Origin: Clostridia bacterium
GTDB lineage: Bacteria > Bacillota > Clostridia > Christensenellales > Borkfalkiaceae
Length of the DNA: 48,674 nucleotides
Direction: 5' to 3'
Assembly (NCBI GenBank): GCA_017482415.1
Contig: JAFUMY010000112.1
Location: forward strand, 1-48,674
Positions 1-48,674 of this stretch are shown piece after piece (position 1 is the stretch's first letter; every line of letters begins with the position of its first letter). The position numbers were made by a program, and so were the translations under genes. Below the pieces are notes generated by a model. It ran no database searches and had not been told where the DNA came from. It saw nothing but the letters and a program-made list of their open reading frames with translations.

Positions 1-1
1 A

Positions 2-163
2 ATCGTTAAGACGGAGTTTGATCTTCGTCCGTACAACATCATCAAAACCTTGGATTTGAGAAAGCCCGTATTCGCGGCAACCGCTGCTTACGGACATTTC
101 GGAAGAGAGGGTTTTGCTTGGGAAAGAACGGACAAAACGGACGCTTTAAAGAAGTATCTTTAA
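2..163 (+). CDS. metK: S-adenosylmethionine synthetase, 3' end only (5' part lies outside the window)
   Basis: Frame 2 translates to [53 protein letters not shown], stop TAA at 161-163. AAYGHFGR followed by an aromatic-W-E...D stretch is the conserved MetK C-terminus. Confidence 0.85.
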
Positions 164-188
164 TCAATTAAAAAAATGAATGGGATTT

Positions 189-225
189 ACGCCGTGCGGA
201 AAATGGACCGCACGGCGTAATTTTT
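189..225 (+). terminator. Intrinsic terminator downstream of metK
   Basis: acgccgtgcgg (189-199), loop aaaatgga, ccgcacggcgt (208-218), then aattttt. An 11-bp perfect GC-rich stem plus a T-tract. Confidence 0.8.
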
Positions 226-286
226 ACTCGAAATATGTCAAAAATTAAGAAGTTTAGCTTTTTAATATAAAAAAGCAAAAAATATA

Positions 287-315
287 TTGACATTGACAAA
301 ACATGGTGCTATAAT
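287..315 (+). promoter_or_regulatory. Consensus sigma-A-type promoter (TTGACA, 17 nt, TGcTATAAT) for the small ORF / 1390-aa protein operon
   Basis: TTGACA at 287-292, 17-nt spacer, extended -10 TGcTATAAT at 307-315. A second overlapping TTGACA at 293-298 has only an 11-nt spacer and is not used. Confidence 0.6.
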
Positions 316-552
316 ATTCTATCATACTATAAGTAAAGCATCGATATCGAAAACAGCTATGAAGCAGTAAATAGCAATCAGTTTTATCGATTGTAAAACT
401 TATTTATTTTTTTTCCACGCGCGCGATACACTTTATATTCTATTTTACGCGTGGCAGCCCATGGGCTATTTGCTGTTTTACAGCAAATAAAGAATTTATT
501 TGGTTTAAATTTTATAAGTATAATAAAAGTATAATAAAAAAGGAGAGGTATT

Positions 553-699
553 ATGAGCAAATTGAATGTGATAAAAAGTGTTGAAAATGCTCGTAACTAC
601 GAGGAACTGAAGCTGGATGTAATCCGCTTTGAAGCAGAGGACGTCGTCACGGTAAGCCCTCCGGGCGAACAGTGGCCGGGCGAAGACTGGGGACAATAA
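553..699 (+). CDS. Small hypothetical protein of 48 aa, below the 60-aa cutoff of the ORF track: MSKLNVIKSVENARNYEELKLDVIRFEAEDVVTVSPPGEQWPGEDWGQ
   Basis: ATG at 553 preceded by aaGGAGAGG (539-548). TAA at 697-699 overlaps the AAGGAGG ribosome-binding site (698-704) of the next gene, whose ATG is at 711. That arrangement implies an operon with translational coupling. The peptide is acidic, has no Cys and no hydrophobic signal segment. Confidence 0.6.
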   Translation: MSKLNVIKSVENARNYEELKLDVIRFEAEDVVTVSPPGEQWPGEDWGQ

Positions 700-710
700 G
701 GAGGTAAGGT

Positions 711-3700
711 ATGAAAACGTTGAGTATGAAAAAGCTTAAAGTAATCGTACTGTCGTGCCTGCTTTTCTTGGCGACCTTTTTTGGGCTTGCCATGTGGAAG
801 CTGGATTCTAAGACGGCGAGCGCAAACGTAACCTTGAACCCCGACACGTATAAAACGGCGGGCGGTTCCGTGCGTCTTTTTAACGACGAGGGGGACGTGT
901 ACAGTCAAAGAAAGGGTATTCGTTTCCATATTCTTTTGGAAAAATCCCTGTATGAAACGTACAGCGCGAATGAAAATTTCGTATCCTATACGGTCGTATT
1001 GCCTAAGAGTATTTTAGGCACGGCGGAGCTTGGCTACGATACTCCGAAAGCGGTAAAGATTAACACGACGGAGTATTGGCAGGAATACGACAAGGATACG
1101 TCCTTTATGGAATCTATCGCTTACATATACGATCTTCCTGCGACGAAGCACGCAACCGATCTTTGCTTTATGGGCGTGTTCTCGACGGACGGCGGTTCGA
1201 CCTGGAACAAAACGGACGTAGGCGTGAAGAGCATGGCGTACGTTGCAAAAGCGGCGCGCGACGATGCAAATGCAAACTGGAACGATACGCAAGAAACGGC
1301 GTTAAACTACTATATTCCTAAGTACCAATACACCTACCAGGTAGGCAGTGCAAAAACGACGGAAACCGTTGAATACGGCGACGCGTTGAATATTCCTACG
1401 CTTGCGGAAAACACGTCTTGGTGGTATGAAGAGGGCAACGGCGAGGTTGCGCCTCCTACGGCGGCTACGTTTGAAAACTTAGGCGGTGCGGAAACGACGA
1501 AAATTCAGCTCACTTCGACAACAACCAGTCAATTCGTTTTGACGGGCGTTAATTATACGGAAACAGGCTTTAAGGTATGGGCTACGCTTTCCGCGAAAAA
1601 CTTTGGTCACGGTACGACGCTCAGCCCTGAAAACGTTGATATGGTCAAGGGCGATGGCACGGTTGTAGAAGCGAAGACGGTTACGGTAGAAGTTGTAAAT
1701 ATCAATGAGAATGCGGCGACGGATGAGGCTAAATATGCCGATGCGAAATCGCAGCTTGTTATCAGCTTTGATTATGACCAAATTTCTAACGGCGATACGT
1801 TGACGATTTTGAAGAGCTCGCAGTTCTATTACAACGGTTGCTTGTACGAGTTGGGTACCGATTACACCTTCGAATACAACAACGCAAACTGGCAGCTTCC
1901 TCTTGGTGAAATCCATCTCGGAGACATTGCTACAATTGTGAATTATACGGAAGGTCCTGAAAATGATAAGGAATATAATATTCGTGTTACTTTCCGTAGC
2001 GATTTCTTAATCAACGGCGGTGCAACGCTGGAAAAGGCAGACGGCTGCACGAAGGAAAGCAGTATTTATATTACGCGTTTTATAGGTGGTAGCGTGGATT
2101 ATATCACCACCGGTTATTATTATTGGAACCAAGGCGCTAATAAAATCCTTGAACTTCCTCAAACCAACGATCTTTGGGGCGAAGAAGACGGCGACGTTTT
2201 GACGATTGAAGCAGGTACGAAGCTGGTACAAAACAACGGCTACTATGTATTTGCAGAAACGATTACGGCAACGTATAGCGGTGGTGTCGATTGGGTCTTC
2301 TCGTTTGATGAGCATAATATCACCGCGGGGGAATTTAAGACTGCAAGTACGCGAACGGAAATCGATAAAGATGGTAACGAACAGATTTATATTGACGTTA
2401 CGACGAACACCCGTTGGGCGGATAGGACGGTCAAGGTTGTACTCAATGACGGCAAGTTGACATATCACAATACCGACAACGTAACGGAGCTCAATCCCGA
2501 TAAGATATACTACCACGGCGAAACGGCAGCAAACGGCACGCAATATTCGCTGCTGCGTATCTATTTGGACAAAATGAGCGTAACGGGGGACTGGGTAACC
2601 ATCCCTGCTAATACAGAATTCTGGGTGGGCGATCAGATTTATAGATTGACGGAAGACGTTATTTCTTATTACGTGTATGAACCCGAAGTTGGCTCTGGTC
2701 AATGGATCACGAATCCCGAGGTTAAGGACATTTCGGGAGCGGATATCCTTTCGATGAGATTTAACACGGACGATAATGGTCAAACCTATTCCATTCGTTA
2801 TACGACGAAGGAAAGCTGGTCGGATTACGGTTGGAATCGTGTTATCGTAGACGATACCTTCATTGACGGCGAAGGCGTTGTCTGTCATGGTACGAATTAT
2901 TCAAAATTCTTCTATCACGGCGCAGGGAATAATCTGTTTGAAATCCAAGGCGTAAACTTTGGTGCGGCAGGTGGCTCTGTAACCATTAAGGCGGGCACGT
3001 ATTTGTGGCTCTTGAATAACAGCAATCTTTCGTTTGAGGGCGCTTACCGTGTTACAGAAGATTTGTCGATTAGCGTTTCCGGCTCGAACGGCTCACCTGT
3101 TTATAAGGACGCCAACCTTGGAACGATTTGCAAGAGCGATATTGCGAGCTTCAGACACGACGGTTCGCATAGCGGTGAAATTCGTATTTCCTTGAACGGT
3201 GCGCTGATTCAAGGCGTATACGGTTTTGCGGACGTAGACGGCACGGCTACCTTAAACGGCTCGGCTACGACCAGTGGCTTCGTATATGGGTACAAGGAAG
3301 GCGTATATACAGGCAATACCATTCTTGCGTTTACAGGCGAGGATTTTGGAAAAGCATTCCAGGCAACGGCGGTGGGCGATAAGCTTTCGGTTGCGGAAGG
3401 TACGAAGCTTTGGCTTAGAGATGGCGCGGGTTACGTATTGATTGGCGATACGTGGAATTACGTTTGGAACGGCTCTACGTACGTAGACCGCGAGGCGACC
3501 TATGCGGTAAGCTTCAATGTGGCGAATGCAAAAATTACCGTAGACGACGAGGAGGTTACAAACGTAGCAGTTCAAGCGGGCGATCGCGTAACCTTCAAGA
3601 TTACCCCGAACGCAGGCTGCGAACTTTTGTCGGTAACGGGCGCAACGCAGAATCCTGACGGCTCGTATACGACCGATTATATCTTCAGCGGTACGACGGT

Positions 3701-4883
3701 TACGGTCAATGCGGCGGCTTACATTGATTTGGGCCTGAACTGTGTAAGCGGTATTAGCCGCTATAAGGAAGGTGTATATACGGGCGTTCGTATCAATCTG
3801 AATGAATCGGCGGTTGCAGGGCTTAACAATATCAGCGGTGGACACTATGGCATGGCTGTGAGCGGTGAAATGTCGTTGCTTGTCGGCGGCGTTGACGCAA
3901 ACTTCGATGCTTCTGGTGCATTCAACTACTTTGGGGCTGAACACGGCTCGTTGTTAGAGCTTCGTTTTGATACGACGAATCTGGAAGCAGGGGATATGTT
4001 CACAATCAAAGCGGGCACGATATTCTCGCATTCGAATATCCCTTATAAGCTCAGATTCACCGTAGACGTTATGGGTATTTATAATGGTGCTGAATGGAAG
4101 CCCGTTCTTAACCCTACGAAAGTGGGCGAGTTGAATTGGAGCACAATCCATAGAATTGCAAGCTATTCTGACGTAAACAATGGCGTTCCGCAAAACTATA
4201 CGATTCGTATGAGCTTAACGGAGGAGCTGTTTGGCGGCTCGACAAGCTATCAGGTAGTAGTCGGCGGTAACGTTTATTTGAACGGCATGGCTTATACGGG
4301 TGCTTGGGCATACCACGGTAACGGCAACAAGATTTTGCAGTTGTCGAACTGGAACTATGAGGCAGGCGACGTACTCGAGATTGAGGCTGGTGCGAAGATT
4401 TATATGGGCTCCTCGTACTATGAAGTAACGGAGACGTTGACGGCGCTTTGCACCGCAAACGGAAACGGCGCTACGTGGAACTGGGTAAGAGAGTCCACGC
4501 CGAAGCTTGGCGAAATCGATTGGTCGACGGTAGGCAATATTACAAGCTTCTCCGATTTAAAGGACGGAGTGGCGCAGAATTATATGATTCGTATATTCTT
4601 GACTGAGGCATTGTTCAATGGCGCACAACAGAACCATACGATATTTGCGTTAGACGGCGTAACGCTGAACGGCAATGCATACGTAGGTACTTGGACATAC
4701 CACGGCGGCGTCAATAAGATTTTGCAGATTGACACGTGGAACTATAAGAGTGGCGACGTATTGGTGATTGCGGCAGGCACGAAGATCTGTACTTCGACAG
4801 GCTATTACGAGGTAACGAAGACCTTGACGGCAACCTGTTCGGCAGACGGCACCGGCGCAACGTGGAACTTTACGGTTTCCTAA
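711..4883 (+). CDS. Large exported repeat protein (1390 aa), function unknown
   Basis: GGAGG at 700-704, 6 nt before the ATG. The N-terminus MKTLSMKKLKVIVLSCLLFLATFFGLAMW...TASA|NV looks like a signal peptide or signal anchor with an A-x-A cleavage site. At least 7 divergent modules share an aromatic-aromatic-(H/N)-G...N-(K)-I-L ... G-D-x-(L/V)-x-I-x-A-G-(T/A)-K core. The last two units (about 4111-4496 and 4497-4880) are clear tandem copies. No LPXTG or other anchor motif seen. Confidence 0.85.
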   Translation: MKTLSMKKLKVIVLSCLLFLATFFGLAMWKLDSKTASANVTLNPDTYKTAGGSVRLFNDEGDVYSQRKGIRFHILLEKSLYETYSANENFVSYTVVLPKSILGTAELGYDTPKAVKINTTEYWQEYDKDTSFMESIAYIYDLPATKHATDLCFMGVFSTDGGSTWNKTDVGVKSMAYVAKAARDDANANWNDTQETALNYYIPKYQYTYQVGSAKTTETVEYGDALNIPTLAENTSWWYEEGNGEVAPPTAATFENLGGAETTKIQLTSTTTSQFVLTGVNYTETGFKVWATLSAKNFGHGTTLSPENVDMVKGDGTVVEAKTVTVEVVNINENAATDEAKYADAKSQLVISFDYDQISNGDTLTILKSSQFYYNGCLYELGTDYTFEYNNANWQLPLGEIHLGDIATIVNYTEGPENDKEYNIRVTFRSDFLINGGATLEKADGCTKESSIYITRFIGGSVDYITTGYYYWNQGANKILELPQTNDLWGEEDGDVLTIEAGTKLVQNNGYYVFAETITATYSGGVDWVFSFDEHNITAGEFKTASTRTEIDKDGNEQIYIDVTTNTRWADRTVKVVLNDGKLTYHNTDNVTELNPDKIYYHGETAANGTQYSLLRIYLDKMSVTGDWVTIPANTEFWVGDQIYRLTEDVISYYVYEPEVGSGQWITNPEVKDISGADILSMRFNTDDNGQTYSIRYTTKESWSDYGWNRVIVDDTFIDGEGVVCHGTNYSKFFYHGAGNNLFEIQGVNFGAAGGSVTIKAGTYLWLLNNSNLSFEGAYRVTEDLSISVSGSNGSPVYKDANLGTICKSDIASFRHDGSHSGEIRISLNGALIQGVYGFADVDGTATLNGSATTSGFVYGYKEGVYTGNTILAFTGEDFGKAFQATAVGDKLSVAEGTKLWLRDGAGYVLIGDTWNYVWNGSTYVDREATYAVSFNVANAKITVDDEEVTNVAVQAGDRVTFKITPNAGCELLSVTGATQNPDGSYTTDYIFSGTTVTVNAAAYIDLGLNCVSGISRYKEGVYTGVRINLNESAVAGLNNISGGHYGMAVSGEMSLLVGGVDANFDASGAFNYFGAEHGSLLELRFDTTNLEAGDMFTIKAGTIFSHSNIPYKLRFTVDVMGIYNGAEWKPVLNPTKVGELNWSTIHRIASYSDVNNGVPQNYTIRMSLTEELFGGSTSYQVVVGGNVYLNGMAYTGAWAYHGNGNKILQLSNWNYEAGDVLEIEAGAKIYMGSSYYEVTETLTALCTANGNGATWNWVRESTPKLGEIDWSTVGNITSFSDLKDGVAQNYMIRIFLTEALFNGAQQNHTIFALDGVTLNGNAYVGTWTYHGGVNKILQIDTWNYKSGDVLVIAAGTKICTSTGYYEVTKTLTATCSADGTGATWNFTVS

Positions 4884-4890
4884 AAACGAT

Positions 4891-4928
4891 AAAATCCTCT
4901 TACGGAAATTTCCGTAAGAGGATTTTTT
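4891..4928 (+). terminator. Intrinsic terminator of the 1390-aa protein gene
   Basis: aaaatcctcttacggaaa / tttccgtaagaggatttt is a perfect palindrome (core stem cctcttacgga, loop aatt, tccgtaagagg) running into a T-tract, 8 nt after the stop. Confidence 0.85.
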
Positions 4929-4930
4929 GT

Positions 4931-5162
4931 GGTGAAGTTTGTCTTTTAGACAAGTGAAGTTCACTTCGTGAGTGAAGTTTGGGCTATGCCCAAGTGAAGT
5001 TTTTACTTCGTAAAAGATATGGCTGTTATTTATACGTAAAAACCGTTTTAAATAAAGCCTAAACTAAGCTTGCCGATTAGGCAAGCTTAACTTCACTGTT
5101 CGCGCAACGAACAACTTCACTTGCTTTCAGCAAACTTCACTTGTCTAAAGGACAAACTTCAC
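4931..5162. repeat. Intergenic composite repeat element, copy A: four forward GTGAAGTT, a conserved core, four AACTTCAC
   Basis: GTGAAGTT at 4932, 4954, 4972 and 4994. AACTTCAC at 5089, 5113, 5133 and 5155. Spacing is 18-24 bp. Spacers are short palindromes (tgtcttttagaca, tgggctatgccca, gttcgcgcaacgaac, tgctttcagca, tgtctaaaggaca). The core 5002-5088 is about 90 percent identical to that of copy B at 11568-11802. Confidence 0.9.
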
Positions 5163-5201
5163 CTATAATAGACTTGATGATAAAAAACCTTTCCAATTCA
5201 C

Positions 5202-5237
5202 AAAAAAAACGGACCCTTCCAAAAGAGTCCGTTTTTT
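5202..5237 (-). terminator. Intrinsic (bidirectional-looking) terminator of asnA
   Basis: aaaaaaaa-cggaccctt-ccaa-aagagtccg-tttttt. Read on the minus strand it is a stem-loop followed by eight T, 8 nt after the asnA stop. Confidence 0.75.
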
Positions 5238-5244
5238 CAGTTCA

Positions 5245-6252
5245 TTACAACAGCACTACGCCTTTTTCTGCACAGGTACGTCGGGTTTGTTCATCCCAAA
5301 GGGAAACCTGTACTTCGCCGATATGCGCTTTTCCAAGCAACAGCATGGAAAGCCTTGATTGCCCGATACCGCCGCCCATTGTAAGAGGTAATTTTCCTGC
5401 CAAAAGTGCCTTATGGAAGGGGAGTGCTCTGCGCTCGTCTAAGCCCGATTTTTTCAGCTGTTCATCTAAGGCTTTTTCGTCAACTCGAATACCCATGGAC
5501 GAGATCTCCATCGCACAGCCGAGTACGTCGTCCCAGAACAAGATATCACCGTTTAAGCTCCAATCGTCGTAGTCGGGGGCTCGCGAATCGTGCGGCTTTC
5601 CCGATTTCAGTTTATCGCCAATCTGCATAATAAATACCGTTTTATGCTCTTTCACAATGGCGTTTTCGCGTTCCTTAGAGGAAAGCTCGGGGTATAAATC
5701 TTCAAGCTCCTGTGAGGTGATAAATTTCACGGTACGTGTCAGCTCAACACCGATTTGCGGATACCGACAGCGCAGAAAATCGAGGGTGTCGCATATCGCG
5801 CCGACAATGCCCCGTACTACGTTTTTAAGATATTCGACGTTTCGAGTTTCAGGGGTGATAATCTTTTCCCAGTCCCACTGATCGGTGTACACCGAATGCA
5901 GGTTATCCATTTCCTCGTCACGGCGGATTGCGTTCATGTCCGTATACAAGCCCTCGCCTGCGGAAAAGCCGTAAACAGAGAGCGCCATACGCTTCCATTT
6001 TGCGAGCGAATGCACCACGACTGCATCCTTCCCCGTCTCCTTTAAATCGAAACGAACGGGGCGTTCCGTGCCGCTTAAATCGTCGTTTAAACCTGTCGTA
6101 GGGTCAACGAAGAGGGGGGCAGATACGCGTTTAAGGTTCAAAACGAGGCAAAGCCGCTCTTCAAAAGTGCGCTTCAATAGCCCGATCGCCGTCTGCGTAT
6201 CGTATAAGCCCAAAGCCGATTCGTAACCCTTTGGAATATATACCTTACTCAT
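5245..6252 (-). CDS. asnA: Aspartate--ammonia ligase (asparagine synthetase A), 335 aa
   Basis: Length and sequence are typical of AsnA (class II aaRS-like), e.g. MSKVYIPKGY...LYDTQ.AI, EISSMGIRVD, GGGIGQSRL. I chose the ATG (mirror 42423) 10 nt after gaaaagg rather than the GTG 4 codons upstream used by the track. Confidence 0.88.
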   Translation of the reverse strand: MSKVYIPKGYESALGLYDTQTAIGLLKRTFEERLCLVLNLKRVSAPLFVDPTTGLNDDLSGTERPVRFDLKETGKDAVVVHSLAKWKRMALSVYGFSAGEGLYTDMNAIRRDEEMDNLHSVYTDQWDWEKIITPETRNVEYLKNVVRGIVGAICDTLDFLRCRYPQIGVELTRTVKFITSQELEDLYPELSSKERENAIVKEHKTVFIMQIGDKLKSGKPHDSRAPDYDDWSLNGDILFWDDVLGCAMEISSMGIRVDEKALDEQLKKSGLDERRALPFHKALLAGKLPLTMGGGIGQSRLSMLLLGKAHIGEVQVSLWDEQTRRTCAEKGVVLL

Positions 6253-6283
6253 GATTTTTAACACCTTTTCGTGAATTTATCAT

Positions 6284-6313
6284 AGTATAGCATATTATCC
6301 GTAGCTTTGTCAA
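6284..6313 (-). promoter_or_regulatory. Promoter of asnA (TTGACA, 18 nt, TGcTATACT)
   Basis: On the mirror + strand: TTGACA at 42362-42367, 18-nt spacer, TATACT at 42386-42391 preceded by TGc. It lies about 30 nt upstream of the asnA start. Confidence 0.55.
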
Positions 6314-6414
6314 CGATATTTTAAATTGAATCGATATTTTCAATCGGGAGAATGAATAAGAGGTTTGTTTAGCAAATATCGCTAAAATTTCACAAAAGAA
6401 TTTCCCTTTCGCGC

Positions 6415-6443
6415 TTGACACCTGCGTGTGCGTGTGATATAAT
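6415..6443 (+). promoter_or_regulatory. Consensus promoter of the 1658-aa lipoprotein gene (TTGACA, 17 nt, TGaTATAAT)
   Basis: TTGACA at 6415-6420, 17-nt spacer, TGaTATAAT at 6435-6443. Divergent from the asnA promoter. Confidence 0.6.
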
Positions 6444-6529
6444 AATGAATAGAAGCGAGAAACGCTTTTTTTGCTTTTTACGGAGGACTGTTACCGAAAA
6501 AGTAAAAAGAAAAATGGAGGTATAACTCA

Positions 6530-9500
6530 GTGAAGAAATGGCTCAAAAAAGCACTCGTTGCCCTTTCTTGTGTGACGCTTGGCACGACGTTGATGTTCGG
6601 CTTTGCGGCATGTAAGGACGACGAGGAAAGTTCCAGCGGTAAAAAAGACTCGTCTACGACGGCTTGTACGCACGTATGGAATGAAGGCACAGTGCAAACG
6701 GCGGCAACCTGTACAACGGACGGTAGCATGCTGTACACCTGTACGAAGTGTAGCGAAACGAAGACGGAAAAAATCGCAGGCGGACACAAGTACAACACGA
6801 CGGTTGTCGAAGCGACTTGTCTTTCGGACGGCTACACGCTGAACACCTGTTCGGTTTGCGGTACGACCCAGAAGACGAACGTAACGAAGGCGGGCGATCA
6901 CAACTATCAAGAAACGGTTGTAGCAGCGACCTGTACAACGGACGGTATGACGACGTATACCTGTAAAGGCTGCGGCGACAGCTATCGTAACGTCACGGCG
7001 CGCGCGACCGGTCACAACACCGATGGCTGCACGTGGACGACGGAAGAAGTGCAAATTGCGCCTTGCACCTATCAAGGTATTGAAACAACAAAATGTAAGT
7101 CTTGCGGCGAGTCTATTGTGGTTGTTGTAAGCGAATACCAAAAACATGCAAACACGCATGTTACCACTATGGCAGCTACTTGTACGACAGTCGGTACAAA
7201 AATGATTGAATGTAATGATTGCGGCGAAAGAATTACCGAAGAAATCGCAATCAATCCCAATGCGCATGATTGGCAGGTTAGCGGTACGAATAACGGCTTG
7301 ACGAGCTATAGCTGTCAGCACATCGGTTGTACAGAAACCAAGACTGTATTCTCTGCAAAGACGCAGACCTCGGCTACCGTTCCTTCCTCGGCAATTCAGG
7401 ATGCAGGCGAGGTAGAGCTTCAAAACGCAGCGATTAAGATGGACGAGGCTGTTAAGAATCAGCTCGGCAGCGCAGACGTTAATCTTTCGGTTGAAGAAGC
7501 GGACGTTTCGGGAATTATTGATAACGAAACGGCAAACAAGCTTGGCAATAACCCTGTATACAACTTCAATATGTCGAACGCAAGCGGCCCGATTAAGAAT
7601 TTCAACGGCGAGCTTACCGTAACCGTTCCTTATACGCTTGAATACGGTATGGACCCCGATGAGGTCAGCGTTTATTACATAAACGATGAGGGTAAAGTAA
7701 CGGCAATGCCTGCTACCTATTCCGAGGTAAACGGCGAAGGCTTTGCTACCTTCACCACCAACCATTTCTCGTATTATACGGTTATCCGTTTGACGGCGGC
7801 AGAACGCTGTGCAGCATACGGGCATACCTATAAAACGACGGTGGTTGATCCTGCATGTAATCAGCAGGGCTACACGGTAAAGACCTGTCTTGTTTGTAAG
7901 AAGGTTGAGCCCCGCACGAACTTCACGCCCGCGCTTTCGCATAACTATTCGTCGGCGGTCGTTGCGGCTACCTGTACGGAAATGGGCTATACCGTATATA
8001 CCTGTTCGCTCTGTAACGACAAATACGTTTCCGATTACACGGCAAAGGTTGCGCATAAGTATGAAGATAGCGTAACCGCACCTACCTGTACGGCAAACGG
8101 TTATACGACGCATACCTGTACGGTATGTAATTCGTCCTACACCGACAGCGAAACGGACGCAAAGGGCCACACCTATGCGAACGGCGCTTGCAGCGTTTGC
8201 GGTCGTAAGGACCCCAATGCGGCGACCAATAACTTCTACTGGAATATGGTAGAAAGCCTTGCGTTGGTAGAAACCTATTATCTTGAAGTAAGCGGCTTGA
8301 ACATCGAAATGGTGAATACCTATTCGAACGGTGACAAGCAGAACATAACCTATAAAATGTCCCTTGCACAGGTACAAATCGGATTCGACGAAACGGGTAT
8401 CGTAGGCAAAGGCGAGGGTACCATGGTCATGACGAACGAAGAAACGGGCAAATCCCCGTCCTCGGATAACGCTTCCGGCGTTATGAAATTCGTATTCCGT
8501 GACGGTATGATTTACGCATACACAAAGGCAACGGAAACAATGGGCGCTGCTTACGAACAGTATATGGTTGTTCCTCAATCGTATATGTTCGATATGGAAG
8601 AAGATGAATTCCCTGCGTTTATTCAAATGATGAGCGGCAACGTTGCAGAAATCGGCGGTTTGCTTTCGGGCTTTGGCGCAGGCGAAAACAGCCGTATGAA
8701 CAACGTCCTGAAAACGGTCATTGAATATTGTTTCACCAAGACCGAAACGGAAAACGGCTATATGTTCACGTTGAATGCAGACCGCGCGCTTGAAATGTAC
8801 AATGCGATTAAGAACAACACGGTTGATAAGCTTTTCGACCTCGTGTTCGGCGAAGGTGCGTTTGCGGCAACGCAGAGCTTCCTTGTAGCTTCCGTTGATA
8901 AGACGGTTGCCCAGTTTGAAGCGGACGTTAAGACCGAGCTTGCAGCATGGGGTATCAATATTGATACGGTATATACCTTTATCAACAAATATGCCGGCAT
9001 GATGGGTAACATGGGCGGCGGCTCTGTTGGCGGCAACGCTAGCAGCAACAGTAGTATGCCCAGTCAAGGTATTCAGGGAGGCGTGAAGCCTATGGCGGCA
9101 AACGAAGCTCCCGAAGCATTCGACATCAAAGCGACGATCGCGGAAATGGGCAACGTGAAGATTTCCGAGGTCCTCGACGAGATGCTTAGCGAAGTGGTAG
9201 AGGAAGCGATTGATTATAAAGCGATGATCAATGAGTGCGCTGAACAGCTCAAAGCGATGAAGATTTTTGATATGGCAGAGCTTTCGGACGGCGAAATTGC
9301 AGATATTCAAGCGACGATTGAAGACGTAACGAAGGCACTTCGTAACAACCCTGTAACCTTCACGACGGATAAATCGGGTGCGCTCCTTTCCTTCGGCGCG
9401 AAGCTTACTGATTTCGTTCCCGTAGACAATACGGGCAAGACGCTTGGTCAGGACGGTGTTTACACCCTTTACGACGTGAAGATTAACGGCGAATTTAAGT

Positions 9501-11506: not shown

Positions 11507-11526
11507 TAAAAACCGAATAGGTAACG

Positions 11527-11565
11527 GAAGCCGAGAGGATTATTCCTCTCGGCTTCTTGCCTTTT
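11527..11565 (+). terminator. Intrinsic terminator of the lipoprotein gene
   Basis: gaagccgagagga-ttat-tcctctcggcttc, a 13-bp perfect stem, followed by ttgcctttt. Confidence 0.8.
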
Positions 11566-11567
11566 AG

Positions 11568-14999: not shown

Positions 15000-15015
15000 T
15001 CAATAAGGAATTTTT

Positions 15016-37107: not shown

Positions 37108-37109
37108 CT

Positions 37110-37148: not shown

Positions 37149-37168
37149 CGTTACCTATTCGGTTTTTA

Positions 37169-42145: not shown

Positions 42146-42231
42146 TGAGTTATACCTCCATTTTTCTTTTTACTTTTTCGGTAACAGTCCTCCGTAAAAA
42201 GCAAAAAAAGCGTTTCTCGCTTCTATTCATT

Positions 42232-42260
42232 ATTATATCACACGCACACGCAGGTGTCAA
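42232..42260 (-). promoter_or_regulatory. Mirror copy of the lipoprotein-gene promoter
   Basis: Reverse complement of 6415..6443. Confidence 0.6.
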
Positions 42261-42361
42261 GCGCGAAAGGGAAATTCTTTTGTGAAATTTTAGCGATATT
42301 TGCTAAACAAACCTCTTATTCATTCTCCCGATTGAAAATATCGATTCAATTTAAAATATCG

Positions 42362-42391
42362 TTGACAAAGCTACGGATAATATGCTATACT
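42362..42391 (+). promoter_or_regulatory. Mirror copy of the asnA promoter (TTGACA, 18 nt, TGcTATACT)
   Basis: Read directly on the + strand at 42362-42391. Confidence 0.55.
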
Positions 42392-42422
42392 ATGATAAAT
42401 TCACGAAAAGGTGTTAAAAATC

Positions 42423-43430
42423 ATGAGTAAGGTATATATTCCAAAGGGTTACGAATCGGCTTTGGGCTTATACGATACGCAGACGGCGATCGGGCTATTG
42501 AAGCGCACTTTTGAAGAGCGGCTTTGCCTCGTTTTGAACCTTAAACGCGTATCTGCCCCCCTCTTCGTTGACCCTACGACAGGTTTAAACGACGATTTAA
42601 GCGGCACGGAACGCCCCGTTCGTTTCGATTTAAAGGAGACGGGGAAGGATGCAGTCGTGGTGCATTCGCTCGCAAAATGGAAGCGTATGGCGCTCTCTGT
42701 TTACGGCTTTTCCGCAGGCGAGGGCTTGTATACGGACATGAACGCAATCCGCCGTGACGAGGAAATGGATAACCTGCATTCGGTGTACACCGATCAGTGG
42801 GACTGGGAAAAGATTATCACCCCTGAAACTCGAAACGTCGAATATCTTAAAAACGTAGTACGGGGCATTGTCGGCGCGATATGCGACACCCTCGATTTTC
42901 TGCGCTGTCGGTATCCGCAAATCGGTGTTGAGCTGACACGTACCGTGAAATTTATCACCTCACAGGAGCTTGAAGATTTATACCCCGAGCTTTCCTCTAA
43001 GGAACGCGAAAACGCCATTGTGAAAGAGCATAAAACGGTATTTATTATGCAGATTGGCGATAAACTGAAATCGGGAAAGCCGCACGATTCGCGAGCCCCC
43101 GACTACGACGATTGGAGCTTAAACGGTGATATCTTGTTCTGGGACGACGTACTCGGCTGTGCGATGGAGATCTCGTCCATGGGTATTCGAGTTGACGAAA
43201 AAGCCTTAGATGAACAGCTGAAAAAATCGGGCTTAGACGAGCGCAGAGCACTCCCCTTCCATAAGGCACTTTTGGCAGGAAAATTACCTCTTACAATGGG
43301 CGGCGGTATCGGGCAATCAAGGCTTTCCATGCTGTTGCTTGGAAAAGCGCATATCGGCGAAGTACAGGTTTCCCTTTGGGATGAACAAACCCGACGTACC
43401 TGTGCAGAAAAAGGCGTAGTGCTGTTGTAA
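42423..43430 (+). CDS. asnA: Aspartate--ammonia ligase, mirror copy of 5245..6252
   Basis: Identical translation. Confidence 0.88.
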   Translation: MSKVYIPKGYESALGLYDTQTAIGLLKRTFEERLCLVLNLKRVSAPLFVDPTTGLNDDLSGTERPVRFDLKETGKDAVVVHSLAKWKRMALSVYGFSAGEGLYTDMNAIRRDEEMDNLHSVYTDQWDWEKIITPETRNVEYLKNVVRGIVGAICDTLDFLRCRYPQIGVELTRTVKFITSQELEDLYPELSSKERENAIVKEHKTVFIMQIGDKLKSGKPHDSRAPDYDDWSLNGDILFWDDVLGCAMEISSMGIRVDEKALDEQLKKSGLDERRALPFHKALLAGKLPLTMGGGIGQSRLSMLLLGKAHIGEVQVSLWDEQTRRTCAEKGVVLL

Positions 43431-43437
43431 TGAACTG

Positions 43438-43473
43438 AAAAAACGGACTCTTTTGGAAGGGTCCGTTTTTTTT
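43438..43473 (+). terminator. Mirror copy of the asnA terminator
   Basis: aaaaaacggactctt-ttgg-aagggtccgtttttttt. Confidence 0.75.
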
Positions 43474-43512
43474 GTGAATTGGAAAGGTTTTTTATCATCA
43501 AGTCTATTATAG

Positions 43513-43744
43513 GTGAAGTTTGTCCTTTAGACAAGTGAAGTTTGCTGAAAGCAAGTGAAGTTGTTCGTTGCGCGAACAGTGAAGTTAAGCTTGCCTAATC
43601 GGCAAGCTTAGTTTAGGCTTTATTTAAAACGGTTTTTACGTATAAATAACAGCCATATCTTTTACGAAGTAAAAACTTCACTTGGGCATAGCCCAAACTT
43701 CACTCACGAAGTGAACTTCACTTGTCTAAAAGACAAACTTCACC
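43513..43744. repeat. Composite GTGAAGTT repeat element, mirror of copy A
   Basis: Reverse complement of 4931..5162. Confidence 0.9.
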
Positions 43745-43746
43745 AC

Positions 43747-43784
43747 AAAAAATCCTCTTACGGAAATTTCCGTAAGAGGATTTT
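43747..43784 (-). terminator. Mirror copy of the terminator at 4891..4928
   Basis: Reverse complement of the left-arm hairpin. Confidence 0.85.
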
Positions 43785-43791
43785 ATCGTTT

Positions 43792-46700
43792 TTAGGAAAC
43801 CGTAAAGTTCCACGTTGCGCCGGTGCCGTCTGCCGAACAGGTTGCCGTCAAGGTCTTCGTTACCTCGTAATAGCCTGTCGAAGTACAGATCTTCGTGCCT
43901 GCCGCAATCACCAATACGTCGCCACTCTTATAGTTCCACGTGTCAATCTGCAAAATCTTATTGACGCCGCCGTGGTATGTCCAAGTACCTACGTATGCAT
44001 TGCCGTTCAGCGTTACGCCGTCTAACGCAAATATCGTATGGTTCTGTTGTGCGCCATTGAACAATGCCTCAGTCAAGAATATACGAATCATATAATTCTG
44101 CGCCACTCCGTCCTTTAAATCGGAGAAGCTTGTAATATTGCCTACCGTCGACCAATCGATTTCGCCAAGCTTCGGCGTGGACTCTCTTACCCAGTTCCAC
44201 GTAGCGCCGTTTCCGTTTGCGGTGCAAAGCGCCGTCAACGTCTCCGTTACTTCATAGTACGAGGAGCCCATATAAATCTTCGCACCAGCCTCAATCTCGA
44301 GTACGTCGCCTGCCTCATAGTTCCAGTTCGACAACTGCAAAATCTTGTTGCCGTTACCGTGGTATGCCCAAGCACCCGTATAAGCCATGCCGTTCAAATA
44401 AACGTTACCGCCGACTACTACCTGATAGCTTGTCGAGCCGCCAAACAGCTCCTCCGTTAAGCTCATACGAATCGTATAGTTTTGCGGAACGCCATTGTTT
44501 ACGTCAGAATAGCTTGCAATTCTATGGATTGTGCTCCAATTCAACTCGCCCACTTTCGTAGGGTTAAGAACGGGCTTCCATTCAGCACCATTATAAATAC
44601 CCATAACGTCTACGGTGAATCTGAGCTTATAAGGGATATTCGAATGCGAGAATATCGTGCCCGCTTTGATTGTGAACATATCCCCTGCTTCCAGATTCGT
44701 CGTATCAAAACGAAGCTCTAACAACGAGCCGTGTTCAGCCCCAAAGTAGTTGAATGCACCAGAAGCATCGAAGTTTGCGTCAACGCCGCCGACAAGCAAC
44801 GACATTTCACCGCTCACAGCCATGCCATAGTGTCCACCGCTGATATTGTTAAGCCCTGCAACCGCCGATTCATTCAGATTGATACGAACGCCCGTATATA
44901 CACCTTCCTTATAGCGGCTAATACCGCTTACACAGTTCAGGCCCAAATCAATGTAAGCCGCCGCATTGACCGTAACCGTCGTACCGCTGAAGATATAATC
45001 GGTCGTATACGAGCCGTCAGGATTCTGCGTTGCGCCCGTTACCGACAAAAGTTCGCAGCCTGCGTTCGGGGTAATCTTGAAGGTTACGCGATCGCCCGCT
45101 TGAACTGCTACGTTTGTAACCTCCTCGTCGTCTACGGTAATTTTTGCATTCGCCACATTGAAGCTTACCGCATAGGTCGCCTCGCGGTCTACGTACGTAG
45201 AGCCGTTCCAAACGTAATTCCACGTATCGCCAATCAATACGTAACCCGCGCCATCTCTAAGCCAAAGCTTCGTACCTTCCGCAACCGAAAGCTTATCGCC
45301 CACCGCCGTTGCCTGGAATGCTTTTCCAAAATCCTCGCCTGTAAACGCAAGAATGGTATTGCCTGTATATACGCCTTCCTTGTACCCATATACGAAGCCA
45401 CTGGTCGTAGCCGAGCCGTTTAAGGTAGCCGTGCCGTCTACGTCCGCAAAACCGTATACGCCTTGAATCAGCGCACCGTTCAAGGAAATACGAATTTCAC
45501 CGCTATGCGAACCGTCGTGTCTGAAGCTCGCAATATCGCTCTTGCAAATCGTTCCAAGGTTGGCGTCCTTATAAACAGGTGAGCCGTTCGAGCCGGAAAC
45601 GCTAATCGACAAATCTTCTGTAACACGGTAAGCGCCCTCAAACGAAAGATTGCTGTTATTCAAGAGCCACAAATACGTGCCCGCCTTAATGGTTACAGAG
45701 CCACCTGCCGCACCAAAGTTTACGCCTTGGATTTCAAACAGATTATTCCCTGCGCCGTGATAGAAGAATTTTGAATAATTCGTACCATGACAGACAACGC
45801 CTTCGCCGTCAATGAAGGTATCGTCTACGATAACACGATTCCAACCGTAATCCGACCAGCTTTCCTTCGTCGTATAACGAATGGAATAGGTTTGACCATT
45901 ATCGTCCGTGTTAAATCTCATCGAAAGGATATCCGCTCCCGAAATGTCCTTAACCTCGGGATTCGTGATCCATTGACCAGAGCCAACTTCGGGTTCATAC
46001 ACGTAATAAGAAATAACGTCTTCCGTCAATCTATAAATCTGATCGCCCACCCAGAATTCTGTATTAGCAGGGATGGTTACCCAGTCCCCCGTTACGCTCA
46101 TTTTGTCCAAATAGATACGCAGCAGCGAATATTGCGTGCCGTTTGCTGCCGTTTCGCCGTGGTAGTATATCTTATCGGGATTGAGCTCCGTTACGTTGTC
46201 GGTATTGTGATATGTCAACTTGCCGTCATTGAGTACAACCTTGACCGTCCTATCCGCCCAACGGGTGTTCGTCGTAACGTCAATATAAATCTGTTCGTTA
46301 CCATCTTTATCGATTTCCGTTCGCGTACTTGCAGTCTTAAATTCCCCCGCGGTGATATTATGCTCATCAAACGAGAAGACCCAATCGACACCACCGCTAT
46401 ACGTTGCCGTAATCGTTTCTGCAAATACATAGTAGCCGTTGTTTTGTACCAGCTTCGTACCTGCTTCAATCGTCAAAACGTCGCCGTCTTCTTCGCCCCA
46501 AAGATCGTTGGTTTGAGGAAGTTCAAGGATTTTATTAGCGCCTTGGTTCCAATAATAATAACCGGTGGTGATATAATCCACGCTACCACCTATAAAACGC
46601 GTAATATAAATACTGCTTTCCTTCGTGCAGCCGTCTGCCTTTTCCAGCGTTGCACCGCCGTTGATTAAGAAATCGCTACGGAAAGTAACACGAATATTAT

Positions 46701-47964
46701 ATTCCTTATCATTTTCAGGACCTTCCGTATAATTCACAATTGTAGCAATGTCTCCGAGATGGATTTCACCAAGAGGAAGCTGCCAGTTTGCGTTGTTGTA
46801 TTCGAAGGTGTAATCGGTACCCAACTCGTACAAGCAACCGTTGTAATAGAACTGCGAGCTCTTCAAAATCGTCAACGTATCGCCGTTAGAAATTTGGTCA
46901 TAATCAAAGCTGATAACAAGCTGCGATTTCGCATCGGCATATTTAGCCTCATCCGTCGCCGCATTCTCATTGATATTTACAACTTCTACCGTAACCGTCT
47001 TCGCTTCTACAACCGTGCCATCGCCCTTGACCATATCAACGTTTTCAGGGCTGAGCGTCGTACCGTGACCAAAGTTTTTCGCGGAAAGCGTAGCCCATAC
47101 CTTAAAGCCTGTTTCCGTATAATTAACGCCCGTCAAAACGAATTGACTGGTTGTTGTCGAAGTGAGCTGAATTTTCGTCGTTTCCGCACCGCCTAAGTTT
47201 TCAAACGTAGCCGCCGTAGGAGGCGCAACCTCGCCGTTGCCCTCTTCATACCACCAAGACGTGTTTTCCGCAAGCGTAGGAATATTCAACGCGTCGCCGT
47301 ATTCAACGGTTTCCGTCGTTTTTGCACTGCCTACCTGGTAGGTGTATTGGTACTTAGGAATATAGTAGTTTAACGCCGTTTCTTGCGTATCGTTCCAGTT
47401 TGCATTTGCATCGTCGCGCGCCGCTTTTGCAACGTACGCCATGCTCTTCACGCCTACGTCCGTTTTGTTCCAGGTCGAACCGCCGTCCGTCGAGAACACG
47501 CCCATAAAGCAAAGATCGGTTGCGTGCTTCGTCGCAGGAAGATCGTATATGTAAGCGATAGATTCCATAAAGGACGTATCCTTGTCGTATTCCTGCCAAT
47601 ACTCCGTCGTGTTAATCTTTACCGCTTTCGGAGTATCGTAGCCAAGCTCCGCCGTGCCTAAAATACTCTTAGGCAATACGACCGTATAGGATACGAAATT
47701 TTCATTCGCGCTGTACGTTTCATACAGGGATTTTTCCAAAAGAATATGGAAACGAATACCCTTTCTTTGACTGTACACGTCCCCCTCGTCGTTAAAAAGA
47801 CGCACGGAACCGCCCGCCGTTTTATACGTGTCGGGGTTCAAGGTTACGTTTGCGCTCGCCGTCTTAGAATCCAGCTTCCACATGGCAAGCCCAAAAAAGG
47901 TCGCCAAGAAAAGCAGGCACGACAGTACGATTACTTTAAGCTTTTTCATACTCAACGTTTTCAT
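43792..47964 (-). CDS. Large exported repeat protein (1390 aa), mirror copy of 711..4883
   Basis: Identical translation. Confidence 0.85.
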   Translation of the reverse strand: MKTLSMKKLKVIVLSCLLFLATFFGLAMWKLDSKTASANVTLNPDTYKTAGGSVRLFNDEGDVYSQRKGIRFHILLEKSLYETYSANENFVSYTVVLPKSILGTAELGYDTPKAVKINTTEYWQEYDKDTSFMESIAYIYDLPATKHATDLCFMGVFSTDGGSTWNKTDVGVKSMAYVAKAARDDANANWNDTQETALNYYIPKYQYTYQVGSAKTTETVEYGDALNIPTLAENTSWWYEEGNGEVAPPTAATFENLGGAETTKIQLTSTTTSQFVLTGVNYTETGFKVWATLSAKNFGHGTTLSPENVDMVKGDGTVVEAKTVTVEVVNINENAATDEAKYADAKSQLVISFDYDQISNGDTLTILKSSQFYYNGCLYELGTDYTFEYNNANWQLPLGEIHLGDIATIVNYTEGPENDKEYNIRVTFRSDFLINGGATLEKADGCTKESSIYITRFIGGSVDYITTGYYYWNQGANKILELPQTNDLWGEEDGDVLTIEAGTKLVQNNGYYVFAETITATYSGGVDWVFSFDEHNITAGEFKTASTRTEIDKDGNEQIYIDVTTNTRWADRTVKVVLNDGKLTYHNTDNVTELNPDKIYYHGETAANGTQYSLLRIYLDKMSVTGDWVTIPANTEFWVGDQIYRLTEDVISYYVYEPEVGSGQWITNPEVKDISGADILSMRFNTDDNGQTYSIRYTTKESWSDYGWNRVIVDDTFIDGEGVVCHGTNYSKFFYHGAGNNLFEIQGVNFGAAGGSVTIKAGTYLWLLNNSNLSFEGAYRVTEDLSISVSGSNGSPVYKDANLGTICKSDIASFRHDGSHSGEIRISLNGALIQGVYGFADVDGTATLNGSATTSGFVYGYKEGVYTGNTILAFTGEDFGKAFQATAVGDKLSVAEGTKLWLRDGAGYVLIGDTWNYVWNGSTYVDREATYAVSFNVANAKITVDDEEVTNVAVQAGDRVTFKITPNAGCELLSVTGATQNPDGSYTTDYIFSGTTVTVNAAAYIDLGLNCVSGISRYKEGVYTGVRINLNESAVAGLNNISGGHYGMAVSGEMSLLVGGVDANFDASGAFNYFGAEHGSLLELRFDTTNLEAGDMFTIKAGTIFSHSNIPYKLRFTVDVMGIYNGAEWKPVLNPTKVGELNWSTIHRIASYSDVNNGVPQNYTIRMSLTEELFGGSTSYQVVVGGNVYLNGMAYTGAWAYHGNGNKILQLSNWNYEAGDVLEIEAGAKIYMGSSYYEVTETLTALCTANGNGATWNWVRESTPKLGEIDWSTVGNITSFSDLKDGVAQNYMIRIFLTEALFNGAQQNHTIFALDGVTLNGNAYVGTWTYHGGVNKILQIDTWNYKSGDVLVIAAGTKICTSTGYYEVTKTLTATCSADGTGATWNFTVS

Positions 47965-47975
47965 ACCTTACCTCC

Positions 47976-48122
47976 TTATTGTCCCCAGTCTTCGCCCGGC
48001 CACTGTTCGCCCGGAGGGCTTACCGTGACGACGTCCTCTGCTTCAAAGCGGATTACATCCAGCTTCAGTTCCTCGTAGTTACGAGCATTTTCAACACTTT
48101 TTATCACATTCAATTTGCTCAT
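47976..48122 (-). CDS. Small 48-aa hypothetical protein, mirror copy of 553..699
   Basis: Reverse complement of the left-arm ORF; the stop complement tta is at 47976-47978. Confidence 0.6.
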   Translation of the reverse strand: MSKLNVIKSVENARNYEELKLDVIRFEAEDVVTVSPPGEQWPGEDWGQ

Positions 48123-48359
48123 AATACCTCTCCTTTTTTATTATACTTTTATTATACTTATAAAATTTAAACCAAATAAATTCTTTATTTGCTGTAAAAC
48201 AGCAAATAGCCCATGGGCTGCCACGCGTAAAATAGAATATAAAGTGTATCGCGCGCGTGGAAAAAAAATAAATAAGTTTTACAATCGATAAAACTGATTG
48301 CTATTTACTGCTTCATAGCTGTTTTCGATATCGATGCTTTACTTATAGTATGATAGAAT

Positions 48360-48388
48360 ATTATAGCACCATGTTTTGTCAATGTCAA
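48360..48388 (-). promoter_or_regulatory. Mirror copy of the promoter at 287..315
   Basis: Reverse complement. Confidence 0.6.
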
Positions 48389-48449
48389 TATATTTTTTGC
48401 TTTTTTATATTAAAAAGCTAAACTTCTTAATTTTTGACATATTTCGAGT

Positions 48450-48486
48450 AAAAATTACGCCGTGCGGTCCATTTTCCGCACGGCGT
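48450..48486 (-). terminator. Mirror copy of the metK terminator
   Basis: acgccgtgcgg-tccatttt-ccgcacggcgt, read at 48457-48486. Confidence 0.8.
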
Positions 48487-48511
48487 AAATCCCATTCATT
48501 TTTTTAATTGA

Positions 48512-48673
48512 TTAAAGATACTTCTTTAAAGCGTCCGTTTTGTCCGTTCTTTCCCAAGCAAAACCCTCTCTTCCGAAATGTCCGTAAGCAGCGGTTGCCG
48601 CGAATACGGGCTTTCTCAAATCCAAGGTTTTGATGATGTTGTACGGACGAAGATCAAACTCCGTCTTAACGAT
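48512..48673 (-). CDS. metK: S-adenosylmethionine synthetase 3' end, mirror copy of 2..163
   Basis: Reverse complement of the left-arm fragment. Confidence 0.85.
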
Positions 48674-48674
48674 T

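Follow-up and report, generated by a model that had tools for sequence, protein, structure and literature searches.

Does a palindrome of 48,674 nucleotides, in which normally single-copy housekeeping genes are paired with mirror images of themselves, exist in the genome of the bacterium to which it is assigned, or did it arise during sequencing or assembly? The contig that raises this question (hereafter the window, i.e., the whole 48,674-nt stretch of DNA analysed) derives from an uncultured Clostridia species of the gut that is related to Candidatus Scatosoma. Judging from comparisons of assembled sequence, the window is almost certainly a technical fold-back artefact, in which a real 24.3-kb segment (X) was joined to its own reverse complement.

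Mirror symmetry and gene content of the window

Comparison of the window with its own reverse complement gave 0 mismatches over 48,674 nt. The base counts of the whole window are A=T=12,897 and C=G=11,440, and both GC skew and AT skew are mirrored about the axis, which lies between 24337 and 24338, exactly at half the length (L/2), with no spacer. The bases flanking it are ...AAACAGGAGCGCGCGTCCCA on the left and TGGGACGCGCGCTCCTGTTT... on the right. Zero-spacer palindromes in 200 shuffles of 34 kb reached a half-length of 11 nt at most, and a chance origin of a perfect 48.7-kb palindrome is therefore impossible. The two termini of the window are the same base, within the C-terminal domain of metK (taking the window to be the whole contig, as its exact centring supports). 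Together, the axis at L/2 and the shared metK base indicate that the window is a whole contig composed of X followed by revcomp(X).

The arm was annotated with Pfam and NCBIfam, and the two parts of the window and the genes most relevant here are as follows.

1..24350, + strand: real genomic sequence, comprising arm X and the natural right half of the hairpin palindrome, as supported by annotation, same-species alignment and conserved gene order
24351..48674, no strand: mirrored half, the reverse complement of 1-24324, artefactual and absent from the genome at this place, as seen from its divergence from natural contigs
2-160: metK C-terminal fragment (PF02773)
12048-14999: secA
15016-16113: prfB
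16153-17244: tsaD
22912..24285, + strand: S41 (C-terminal processing) peptidase (PF03572 at 6e-27), the last real gene before the axis, with its stop codon ending 52 nt upstream of the axis

From the sequence alone, the original prediction had described the whole window as a spacerless perfect palindrome, with normally single-copy genes appearing as mirror pairs and only about 24.3 kb of independent information. Each of these points holds: the metK fragment, secA, prfB and tsaD all lie in one arm and are thus mirrored, and the independent information can be placed exactly at 1-24350.

The arm begins with the 3' end of metK, a gene for a 1390-aa secreted protein, asnA (- strand), a gene for a 1658-aa lipoprotein, secA, prfB and tsaD, followed by an ArsP_2 permease and a STAS/anti-sigma kinase/sigma factor/HATPase module, and ends with a 452-aa membrane protein (- strand), a PucR-type regulator and the S41 peptidase. 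An antisense ORF at 6527-11320 (- strand) was rejected as a gene, as it has the Arg/Val-rich composition of a shadow frame and lies opposite the lipoprotein ORF, which has a signal peptide. A tRNA or tmRNA at the axis was rejected, as the window contains neither. The phage collections searched gave no match to the window and the plasmid collections only matches of ~70 nt to secA genes; from these searches, the contig is not a deposited phage or plasmid. No relative was found among the viral contigs scanned.

Continuation beyond the axis in same-species contigs and relatives

Contigs of the same species were found with the S41 peptidase as an anchor, through a cluster of 99%-identical proteins (P0001 and its members). 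Three of them, L155 (62 kb), L156 (57 kb) and L157 (57 kb), align without gaps to window positions 12939-24354, at 99.6-99.7% nucleotide identity over 11.4 kb, and then run past the axis position into unmirrored genes: tkt (- strand, transketolase), pgm (- strand, phosphoglucomutase), degV, UDPGP, DUF4363, DUF421, ECF-S and lgt. The window leaves the natural sequence at 24351, where it has C and the natural contigs have T, and the next 300 nt are 29% identical. The real sequence is limited to bases 1-24350. These contigs support the fold-back artefact that the original prediction had ranked first, and the continuation from about 24337 into different unique sequence, which it had named as refuting a biological palindrome when seen in reads, is found at the level of other assemblies. 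All three were obtained from other samples, and with 33-45 mismatches to the window in 11.4 kb (~0.3-0.4%) they indicate the content of the window's own strain only indirectly.

Passing through this site is the exception within the species. The ends of 10 of the 13 same-species contigs lie at -23, -6, 0, +11 or +12 nt from the axis, that is, within -23 to +12 nt of the apex of a hairpin described below, and the hairpin is therefore a recurrent trouble spot for sequencing and assembly. Identical end coordinates recur in MEGAHIT-style k141 contigs, 'METAG-scaffold' records and Logan contigs, and this recurrence across contig sources points to read-level dropout at the hairpin. The convergent S41/tkt junction was also considered as a replication terminus or dif site, which was rejected because GC skew is positive throughout L155.

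The locus is also conserved in more distant genomes. The gene order from secA to S41 is kept in dozens of metagenome-assembled genomes (MAGs) of Candidatus Scatosoma and other Clostridia, and in relatives with 75-80% S41 identity the hairpin has a homologue, after which the same downstream block and tkt follow. Of the 80 related MAG loci, most run on into unmirrored sequence, and neither a mirrored S41 gene nor an inverted repeat of at least 100 bp occurs at the locus in any of them. Exact look-ups of the S41 peptidase and AsnA proteins of the window returned no record. In addition, an S41 protein scan of species-representative genomes and metagenome contigs returned only relatives of at most 61% identity, which served for the analysis of synteny and hairpin conservation.

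The natural palindrome and hairpin at the axis

Two features of the natural sequence between the S41 stop codon and the point of divergence bear on the position of the axis.

24325..24350, no strand: natural zero-spacer perfect palindrome of 26 bp, AGCGCGCGTCCCA to the left of its centre and TGGGACGCGCGCT to the right, identical in L155, L156 and L157 (half-length 13)
24296..24315, + strand: conserved 3'-flank motif GCAGGTACGAGTTGAGTATA (GGGCAGGTAYGMGWTGAA in relatives), between the S41 stop and the hairpin, at the same position in many relatives

The window axis is the exact centre of the natural 26-bp palindrome, and the window passes from real into mirrored sequence at some point within 24325..24350. 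The palindrome forms the apex of a GC-rich terminator-type hairpin, 52 nt past the S41 stop codon. As seen in L155-L157, the axis thus coincides with a short natural inverted repeat from which self-reverse-complementary k-mers or snap-back priming can arise, and its position on this palindrome, at a conserved terminator hairpin, explains the location of the fold-back. The palindrome is the second longest perfect one in 34.3 kb of natural sequence (against the shuffle maximum half-length of 11). Only two palindromes of at least 26 bp occur in the 34,285 bp of natural sequence, and the probability that a random axis falls on the centre of either is ~6e-5. The longer of the two, a perfect 36-bp palindrome at 4891-4926, was assembled through with no fold-back. 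A palindrome alone is therefore insufficient, and we infer an extra factor, for which GC-rich stem stability and read dropout are candidates.

The same probability weighs against a long-read artefact unrelated to the hairpin, i.e., nanopore template-to-complement read-through or a missed PacBio adapter, with the axis at a fragment end and the arms equalised by polishing. Inverted chimeric reads that yield mirror-image sequences are documented for ligation-based nanopore libraries (PMC13141652). However, a random fragment end would have to coincide with the centre of one of the two long palindromes, and such reads would also be less expected to yield 24-kb arms free of differences, or a clean zero-spacer junction that retains nothing of an adapter. 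The nanopore variant listed in the original prediction is thus argued against by an axis at the centre of a natural palindrome instead of a random fragment end, and we regard this kind of artefact as exceedingly improbable.

The natural RNA is predicted to fold into a 15-bp stem with a CAUG loop (-38.8 kcal/mol, z = -5.2) that starts 35 nt past the S41 stop. The homologous hairpin in 23 relatives shows compensatory changes at 10 of 12 pairs, indicating that the pairing is conserved and the sequence is not. The hairpin resembles a Rho-independent (intrinsic) terminator in being GC-rich, in lying 35-40 nt past a stop codon and in its compensatory pairing, and in most relatives also in having an A-tract on one side and a T-tract on the other (CAAAAGCGC...GCGCTTTTG). 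By contrast, the tail right after the stem is U-poor in the window species (CUUCUGCAAUUUAUUAU): most relatives have GCGCTTTTGCAATT after the stem, whereas in the window species it is CTTCTGCAATTTATTAT, with an interrupted U run. It further differs from typical intrinsic terminators in its unusually long stem (15-17 bp) and self-complementary loop. Overall, the natural hairpin fits a terminator-type element, and its role as a terminator is predicted. The axis hairpin was not listed by a consensus terminator scan of the window. An Rfam search of the natural intergenic region (L155 11200-11700) gave no family at gathering score, with partial terminator-like matches to Atu_C9 and rnk_leader, and by this search the axis hairpin is outside known RNA families. 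As for a structured sRNA in the conserved block past the hairpin, RNAalifold predicts only one further short hairpin there, which has no compensatory changes.

The conservation of pairing rather than sequence also bears on whether the axis could be the covalently closed hairpin telomere of a linear replicon ending there, or a replicated-telomere junction, that was read through. A replicated hairpin telomere looks like a zero-spacer perfect palindrome, as at the junctions of Borrelia ResT, phage N15 TelN and phiKO2 TelK replicated telomeres, and many same-species contigs end at or near the axis. However, three same-species contigs and more distant relatives pass the site with conserved gene order and at least 10 kb on each side of it, which makes the site internal in other assemblies, unlike in the ResT/TelN/TelK systems, and the contig ends are spread from -23 to +12 rather than marking one terminus. 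The hairpin sequence varies among relatives, as fits a terminator better than a resolvase target. The sequence examined also differs from those systems in its gene content: no telomere resolvase, recombinase, transposase or partition gene was found among the ORFs of the arm or in the 10 kb that naturally follow downstream, the flanks carry chromosomal housekeeping genes, and no phage or plasmid match was obtained. The telomere option of the original prediction is thus contradicted by the pass-through contigs, the resolvase-free arm and the unconserved hairpin sequence, and we give it next to no credence.

Probable origin of the fold-back and its consequences

Returning to the technical fold-back, X extends from the middle of metK to the terminator that follows the S41 gene, and revcomp(X) comes next. 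Reads would traverse the hairpin poorly, leaving the link to the tkt side weakly covered or missing, and most assemblies of the species end there. The palindrome at the same time opens a path by which a sequence can run into its own reverse complement: every (k+1)-mer centred on the axis in a de Bruijn graph is self-reverse-complementary at odd k up to 25, including k=21, which is the default first stage of common assemblers. Alternatively, a single strand ending within the palindrome can snap back in vitro and prime its own synthesis. The product of either route would be X + revcomp(X), the two halves meeting without a spacer at the centre of the palindrome and both ends lying at the same genomic base, exactly as the window shows. 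As a rough division, we lean somewhat towards a self-join by the assembler after read dropout, while real snap-back chimeric molecules formed in library preparation or amplification are a serious possibility.

Comparable cases have been described. Whole-contig palindromes were found in SPAdes isolate assemblies of M. bovis (81 contigs; PMC9455707) and in cyanobacterial single-cell (SAG) assemblies (bioRxiv 10.1101/2023.06.06.543983), and in both studies they were judged to be assembly errors and removed. The window is like these contigs in consisting of X + revcomp(X), in having all genes mirror-paired and in showing a duplication that is absent from other assemblies; it belongs to a known artefact class and is of low biological interest. 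The two reports leave the nucleator of the fold-back unnamed, whereas the axis of the window is mapped to the base on a natural 26-bp palindrome, and, unlike in those reports, most other assemblies of the species are found to break at this very site. With regard to read quality, inverted repeats trigger sequence-specific errors in Illumina data (PMC3141275). With regard to snap-back, chimeras formed in multiple displacement amplification (MDA) are mostly inverted and are primed at complementarities of 2-21 nt (PMC1855051), and hairpin formation by long single-stranded DNA was proposed for chimeric fragments from FFPE material (PMC8458033). The window would resemble such inverted chimeras, in which a 3' end primes on the same molecule, and its 13-nt half-palindrome falls within the 2-21 nt range. 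However, more than 85% of MDA chimeras have an intervening deletion (PMC1855051), while the junction in the window has neither spacer nor deletion.

The fold-back might instead be real DNA. Large inverted duplications in vivo can be nucleated by short palindromes. A very recent inverted duplication in a strain or subpopulation, by intrastrand fold-back or template switching at the 26-bp palindrome, would leave a true 48.7-kb chromosomal palindrome with its axis exactly on such a palindrome, as is seen here, and a strain-specific event is compatible with pass-through contigs that stem from other samples. However, real arms should have differing outer junctions, and both outer ends of the window are at the same metK base, as expected of one unitig read out and back. 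Two identical 24-kb arms would normally come out of a short-read assembler as a single collapsed copy, the fold-back is seen in no other assembly of the species and at none of the 80 related MAG loci, and the breaks in 10 of 13 contigs reveal a technical problem already present at the site. Long perfect palindromes are also generally unstable in bacteria, which further argues against a genuine duplication, and we consider it very improbable and unnecessary to account for the window. There is likewise only a slim chance that the fold-back is real DNA in the broader sense, with the palindrome having nucleated either a hairpin-primed inverted duplication in vivo or a hairpin-capped broken chromosome end that was later replicated. 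In that event, the contig ends at the hairpin in other samples would reflect real breakage or cruciform processing, not sequencing dropout.

With the technical fold-back as the preferred reading, the usable sequence is bases 1-24350 only, and the biological weight of the window is small because the mirrored half is not in the genome. The duplication of secA, prfB, tsaD and metK is spurious and would inflate estimates of contamination or duplication, e.g., those based on single-copy marker counts. A whole-contig palindrome also trivially has 'inverted terminal repeats', and software that assesses completeness from terminal repeats could call it a complete linear element. The window might be used as a test case for assembly quality-control filters, and it provides a base-resolved example of how a short terminator palindrome breaks assemblies (10 of 13 contigs here) and occasionally yields a self-joined contig.

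Symmetry and gene content of the contig

The stretch had been described as a perfect palindrome, and we found no mismatch between the window and its own reverse complement over 48,674 nt. The axis of symmetry is at 24337/24338, with zero spacer (central sequence TATATAAACAGGAGCGCGCGTCCCA to its left and TGGGACGCGCGCTCCTGTTTATATA to its right), and base composition and skews are mirror-symmetric around it. Since the axis falls exactly at half the length and both window ends lie at the same intragenic base, the window is most simply an entire contig of the form X + revcomp(X). The arm X holds the following genes, from its outer end to the axis.

Gene content of one arm
2-160: metK, last 53 codons (PF02773)
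711-4883, plus strand: secreted protein, 1390 aa, without Pfam or NCBIfam match
5245-6264, minus strand: asnA
6530-11506, plus strand: putative lipoprotein, 1658 aa, without family match (Pfam, NCBIfam)
12048-14999: secA
15016-16113: prfB
16153-17244: tsaD
17251-18195: ArsP_2 permease
18279-20053: partner-switching module (STAS protein, RsbW-like kinase, sigma factor, second HATPase)
20181-21539, minus strand: membrane protein, 452 aa (o452)
21759-22850: PucR-type regulator
22912-24285: S41 peptidase

The arm carries no gene for a recombinase, transposase or resolvase, no tRNA and no phage or plasmid gene. The S41 stop codon lies 52 nt before the axis, which is itself within GC-rich sequence. 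Both the 1390-aa and the 1658-aa ORFs carry N-terminal signal sequences, with a lipobox-like GFAAC in the latter, and Thr, Gly, Asn and Tyr are abundant in their products, which presumably sit at the cell surface and fall into no recognised family. A 1597-aa open frame (6527-11320, minus strand) runs antisense to the 1658-aa ORF across 4.8 kb, and would encode a product with much Val, Arg, Ala and Ile; the frame was rejected as a gene and resembles instead a shadow frame of the sense gene. In addition, the 540-nt intergenic region upstream of secA contains about 3.4 imperfect tandem copies (11724-11811, 70% matches) of the 23-nt unit AACTTCACTTTTGCTTTAGCAAA.

Same-species contigs and the breakpoint

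Using a cluster from a large protein collection (P0001 and seven other members) that is 99% identical to the window S41 peptidase, we found 13 same-species contigs with 98.4-99.7% nucleotide identity to the arm. None of the 13 folds back; ten stop close to the axis, and three pass its position.

Same-species contigs passing the axis position
L155: ENA ERZ28654221 scaffold_1340, 62 kb
L156: ERZ28654512 scaffold_1315, 57 kb
L157: ERZ28654584 scaffold_1257, 57 kb

These three contigs align ungapped to window positions 12939-24354 at 99.6-99.7% identity, and beyond the axis they encode transketolase (minus strand), phosphoglucomutase (minus), degV, a UDP-glucose pyrophosphorylase-family gene, DUF4363 (minus), DUF421 (minus), an ECF S-component and lgt. 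Their natural sequence reads AAACAGGAGCGCGCGTCCCA up to the axis and TGGGACGCGCGCTTCTGCAATTTATTATGGAGG after it. The window matches it through 24350, with the first mismatch at 24351 (window C, natural T), where the natural sequence continues with TTCTGCAATTTATTATGGAGG (L155 11413 onward); over the 300 nt after divergence, identity is 29%, the random level. In the natural sequence, 24325-24350 make up a perfect palindrome of 26 bp (13 + 13) without spacer, identical in L155-L157 and centred exactly on the axis, with pairing that reaches 17 bp if one G-T pair is allowed. Because identity ends together with this palindrome, the change from real to mirrored sequence must lie within those 26 bp.

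The axis palindrome is the second-longest perfect palindrome in the 34.3 kb of reconstructed natural sequence, after an AT-richer one of 36 bp at 4891-4926, and shuffled sequences gave half-lengths of at most 11. The chance of a random axis falling on the centre of either palindrome is about 6e-5. A long-read template-to-complement read-through would turn back at a random fragment end, and is hardly credible given that the axis coincides with a palindrome centre.

Overall, the unmirrored continuation of the same-species contigs and the position of the switch support the fold-back artefact that the original prediction had preferred. The real sequence is 1-24350, and 24351-48674 is to be discarded; the mirrored half is not a biological feature, and the contig is of low interest except as a clean quality-control example.

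Related loci and the hairpin at the axis

A search with the S41 protein through species-representative genomes yielded 80 loci. All come from uncultured gut Clostridia, and many of these bear the name Candidatus Scatosoma (Bacillota; Clostridia). S41 identity to the window reaches 61% at best among them, but SecA is 80-90% and PrfB about 95% identical, and the order secA, prfB, tsaD, ArsP_2, STAS, kinase, sigma, HATPase, o452 (minus), PucR, S41 is kept in dozens of loci. None of the 80 carries a minus-strand S41 copy, the only inverted repeat of at least 100 bp at the locus is an unrelated 157-bp pair in one of them (L043), and most have unmirrored DNA for 10 kb past S41. A genuine, recent inverted duplication in the sampled strain would be compatible with the fact that the axis-crossing contigs all come from other samples. 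However, the contig ends are symmetric, short-read assemblers would be expected to collapse identical arms, and the fold-back is absent from the other 13 same-species contigs and from the 80 related loci, so that we consider such a duplication very improbable.

In many relatives, the S41 stop leads directly into the conserved motif GGGCAGGTAYGMGWTGAA, which is followed by an A-rich stretch and then a strong GC-rich hairpin, and the window axis coincides with the expected loop position of this hairpin. Relatives with 80% and 75% S41 identity (L150-L154) share the layout of hairpin, conserved block and tkt (minus strand). As RNA, the natural axis sequence is predicted to form a 15-bp stem with a CAUG loop (-38.8 kcal/mol, z = -5.2). 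Aligning 23 relatives gave 12 predicted pairs for the homologous hairpin, 10 of them with compensatory double changes; an A-tract on one side and a T-tract on the other usually border it (CAAAAGCGC...GCGCTTTTG). These compensatory changes and flanking tracts argue, by sequence comparison, that the axis hairpin is a genuine, selected terminator-type hairpin in which pairing is conserved but sequence is not. No Rfam family was found for it.

Directly 3' of the hairpin lies a non-coding block of about 150 nt (L155 11413-11580; about 34 related loci, alignment A1). Its primary sequence is strongly conserved across species whose S41 is only 47-57% identical to that of the window. Its invariant elements are TATGGAGGT, TATA, TTGCGTAAA.TGCGTTGT, GTGATAAT and GAAAA, and it stops at the tkt-side terminator. 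The block has no Rfam match; one extra short hairpin is predicted in it, without compensatory changes, and a candidate ORF of 18-30 codons starting MEVFL(G)IRKR was spotted by eye. Of the post-S41 conserved region, the real part of the window holds only the upstream motif (24296-24315) and the left half-stem.

The 452-aa membrane protein is placed differently in L001, the closest species-representative MAG. Its homologue there (11641-12969, 47% identity) is a plus-strand gene downstream of S41, whereas the window and most other relatives have it on the minus strand, upstream of PucR; the differing placement is a local rearrangement or a paralogue.

Contig ends and possible routes to the fold-back

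The ten contigs that stop near the axis end as follows.

Contig ends relative to the axis
-23: L162, L163, L164
-6: L165, L166
0: L159, L160
0, plus three erroneous bases: L158 (11400-11402; CCCAATG, natural CCCATGG)
+11: L161
+12: L149

Contigs with identical S41 share their end coordinate across two or three pipelines (MEGAHIT-style k141, 'METAG-scaffold' and Logan): -23 for three contigs, -6 for two and 0 for three. Such contigs probably go back to one read set put through different assemblies, which leaves roughly eight sample groups, of which three pass and five break. The shared ends locate the cause in the reads and not in any one assembler, and fit a failure of those read sets at the hairpin. 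This agrees with the sequence-specific failure of Illumina chemistry reported at inverted repeats (PMC3141275).

A hairpin telomere at the axis would make this site the end of a linear replicon, which we regard as highly unlikely: L155-L157 run through it, the stopping contigs end at scattered positions, and no resolvase was found within the sequence examined. Moreover, the stem sequence is not conserved, and a telomere-resolvase target would be expected to show the opposite pattern to that of the axis hairpin.

The fold-back itself could have arisen by two routes, each of which would yield exactly the observed X + revcomp(X). In the assembly graph, any (k+1)-mer centred on the axis is self-reverse-complementary when k is odd and no larger than 25, and a walk entering from X could reverse at the axis and exit along revcomp(X). 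An under-covered true link to the tkt side would leave this turn-back uncontradicted, and a join made at a small-k stage may persist into the final contigs. SPAdes includes a step that splits self-conjugate edges at their midpoint, which would also account for contigs stopping exactly at the axis. Alternatively, in vitro, a single strand with its 3' end inside the right palindrome half might snap back onto the left half, and its extension would produce genuine X + revcomp(X) molecules. Most MDA chimeras are inverted, with priming at 2-21 nt of complementarity and usually a deletion (PMC1855051), and hairpin-mediated chimeras have been proposed for damaged DNA as well (PMC8458033). We lean somewhat towards the graph route. 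Whole-contig palindromes have been reported previously and judged to be assembly errors (PMC9455707; bioRxiv 10.1101/2023.06.06.543983).

The 36-bp zero-spacer palindrome AAAATCCTCTTACGGAAATTTCCGTAAGAGGATTTT (4891-4926; mirror 43749-43784) lies between the stops of the 1390-aa ORF (plus) and asnA (minus) and probably serves as a bidirectional terminator. The assembly passed through it without break or fold-back, so a palindrome alone is insufficient for fold-back; we infer that the stability of the GC-rich stem and read dropout contributed at the axis.
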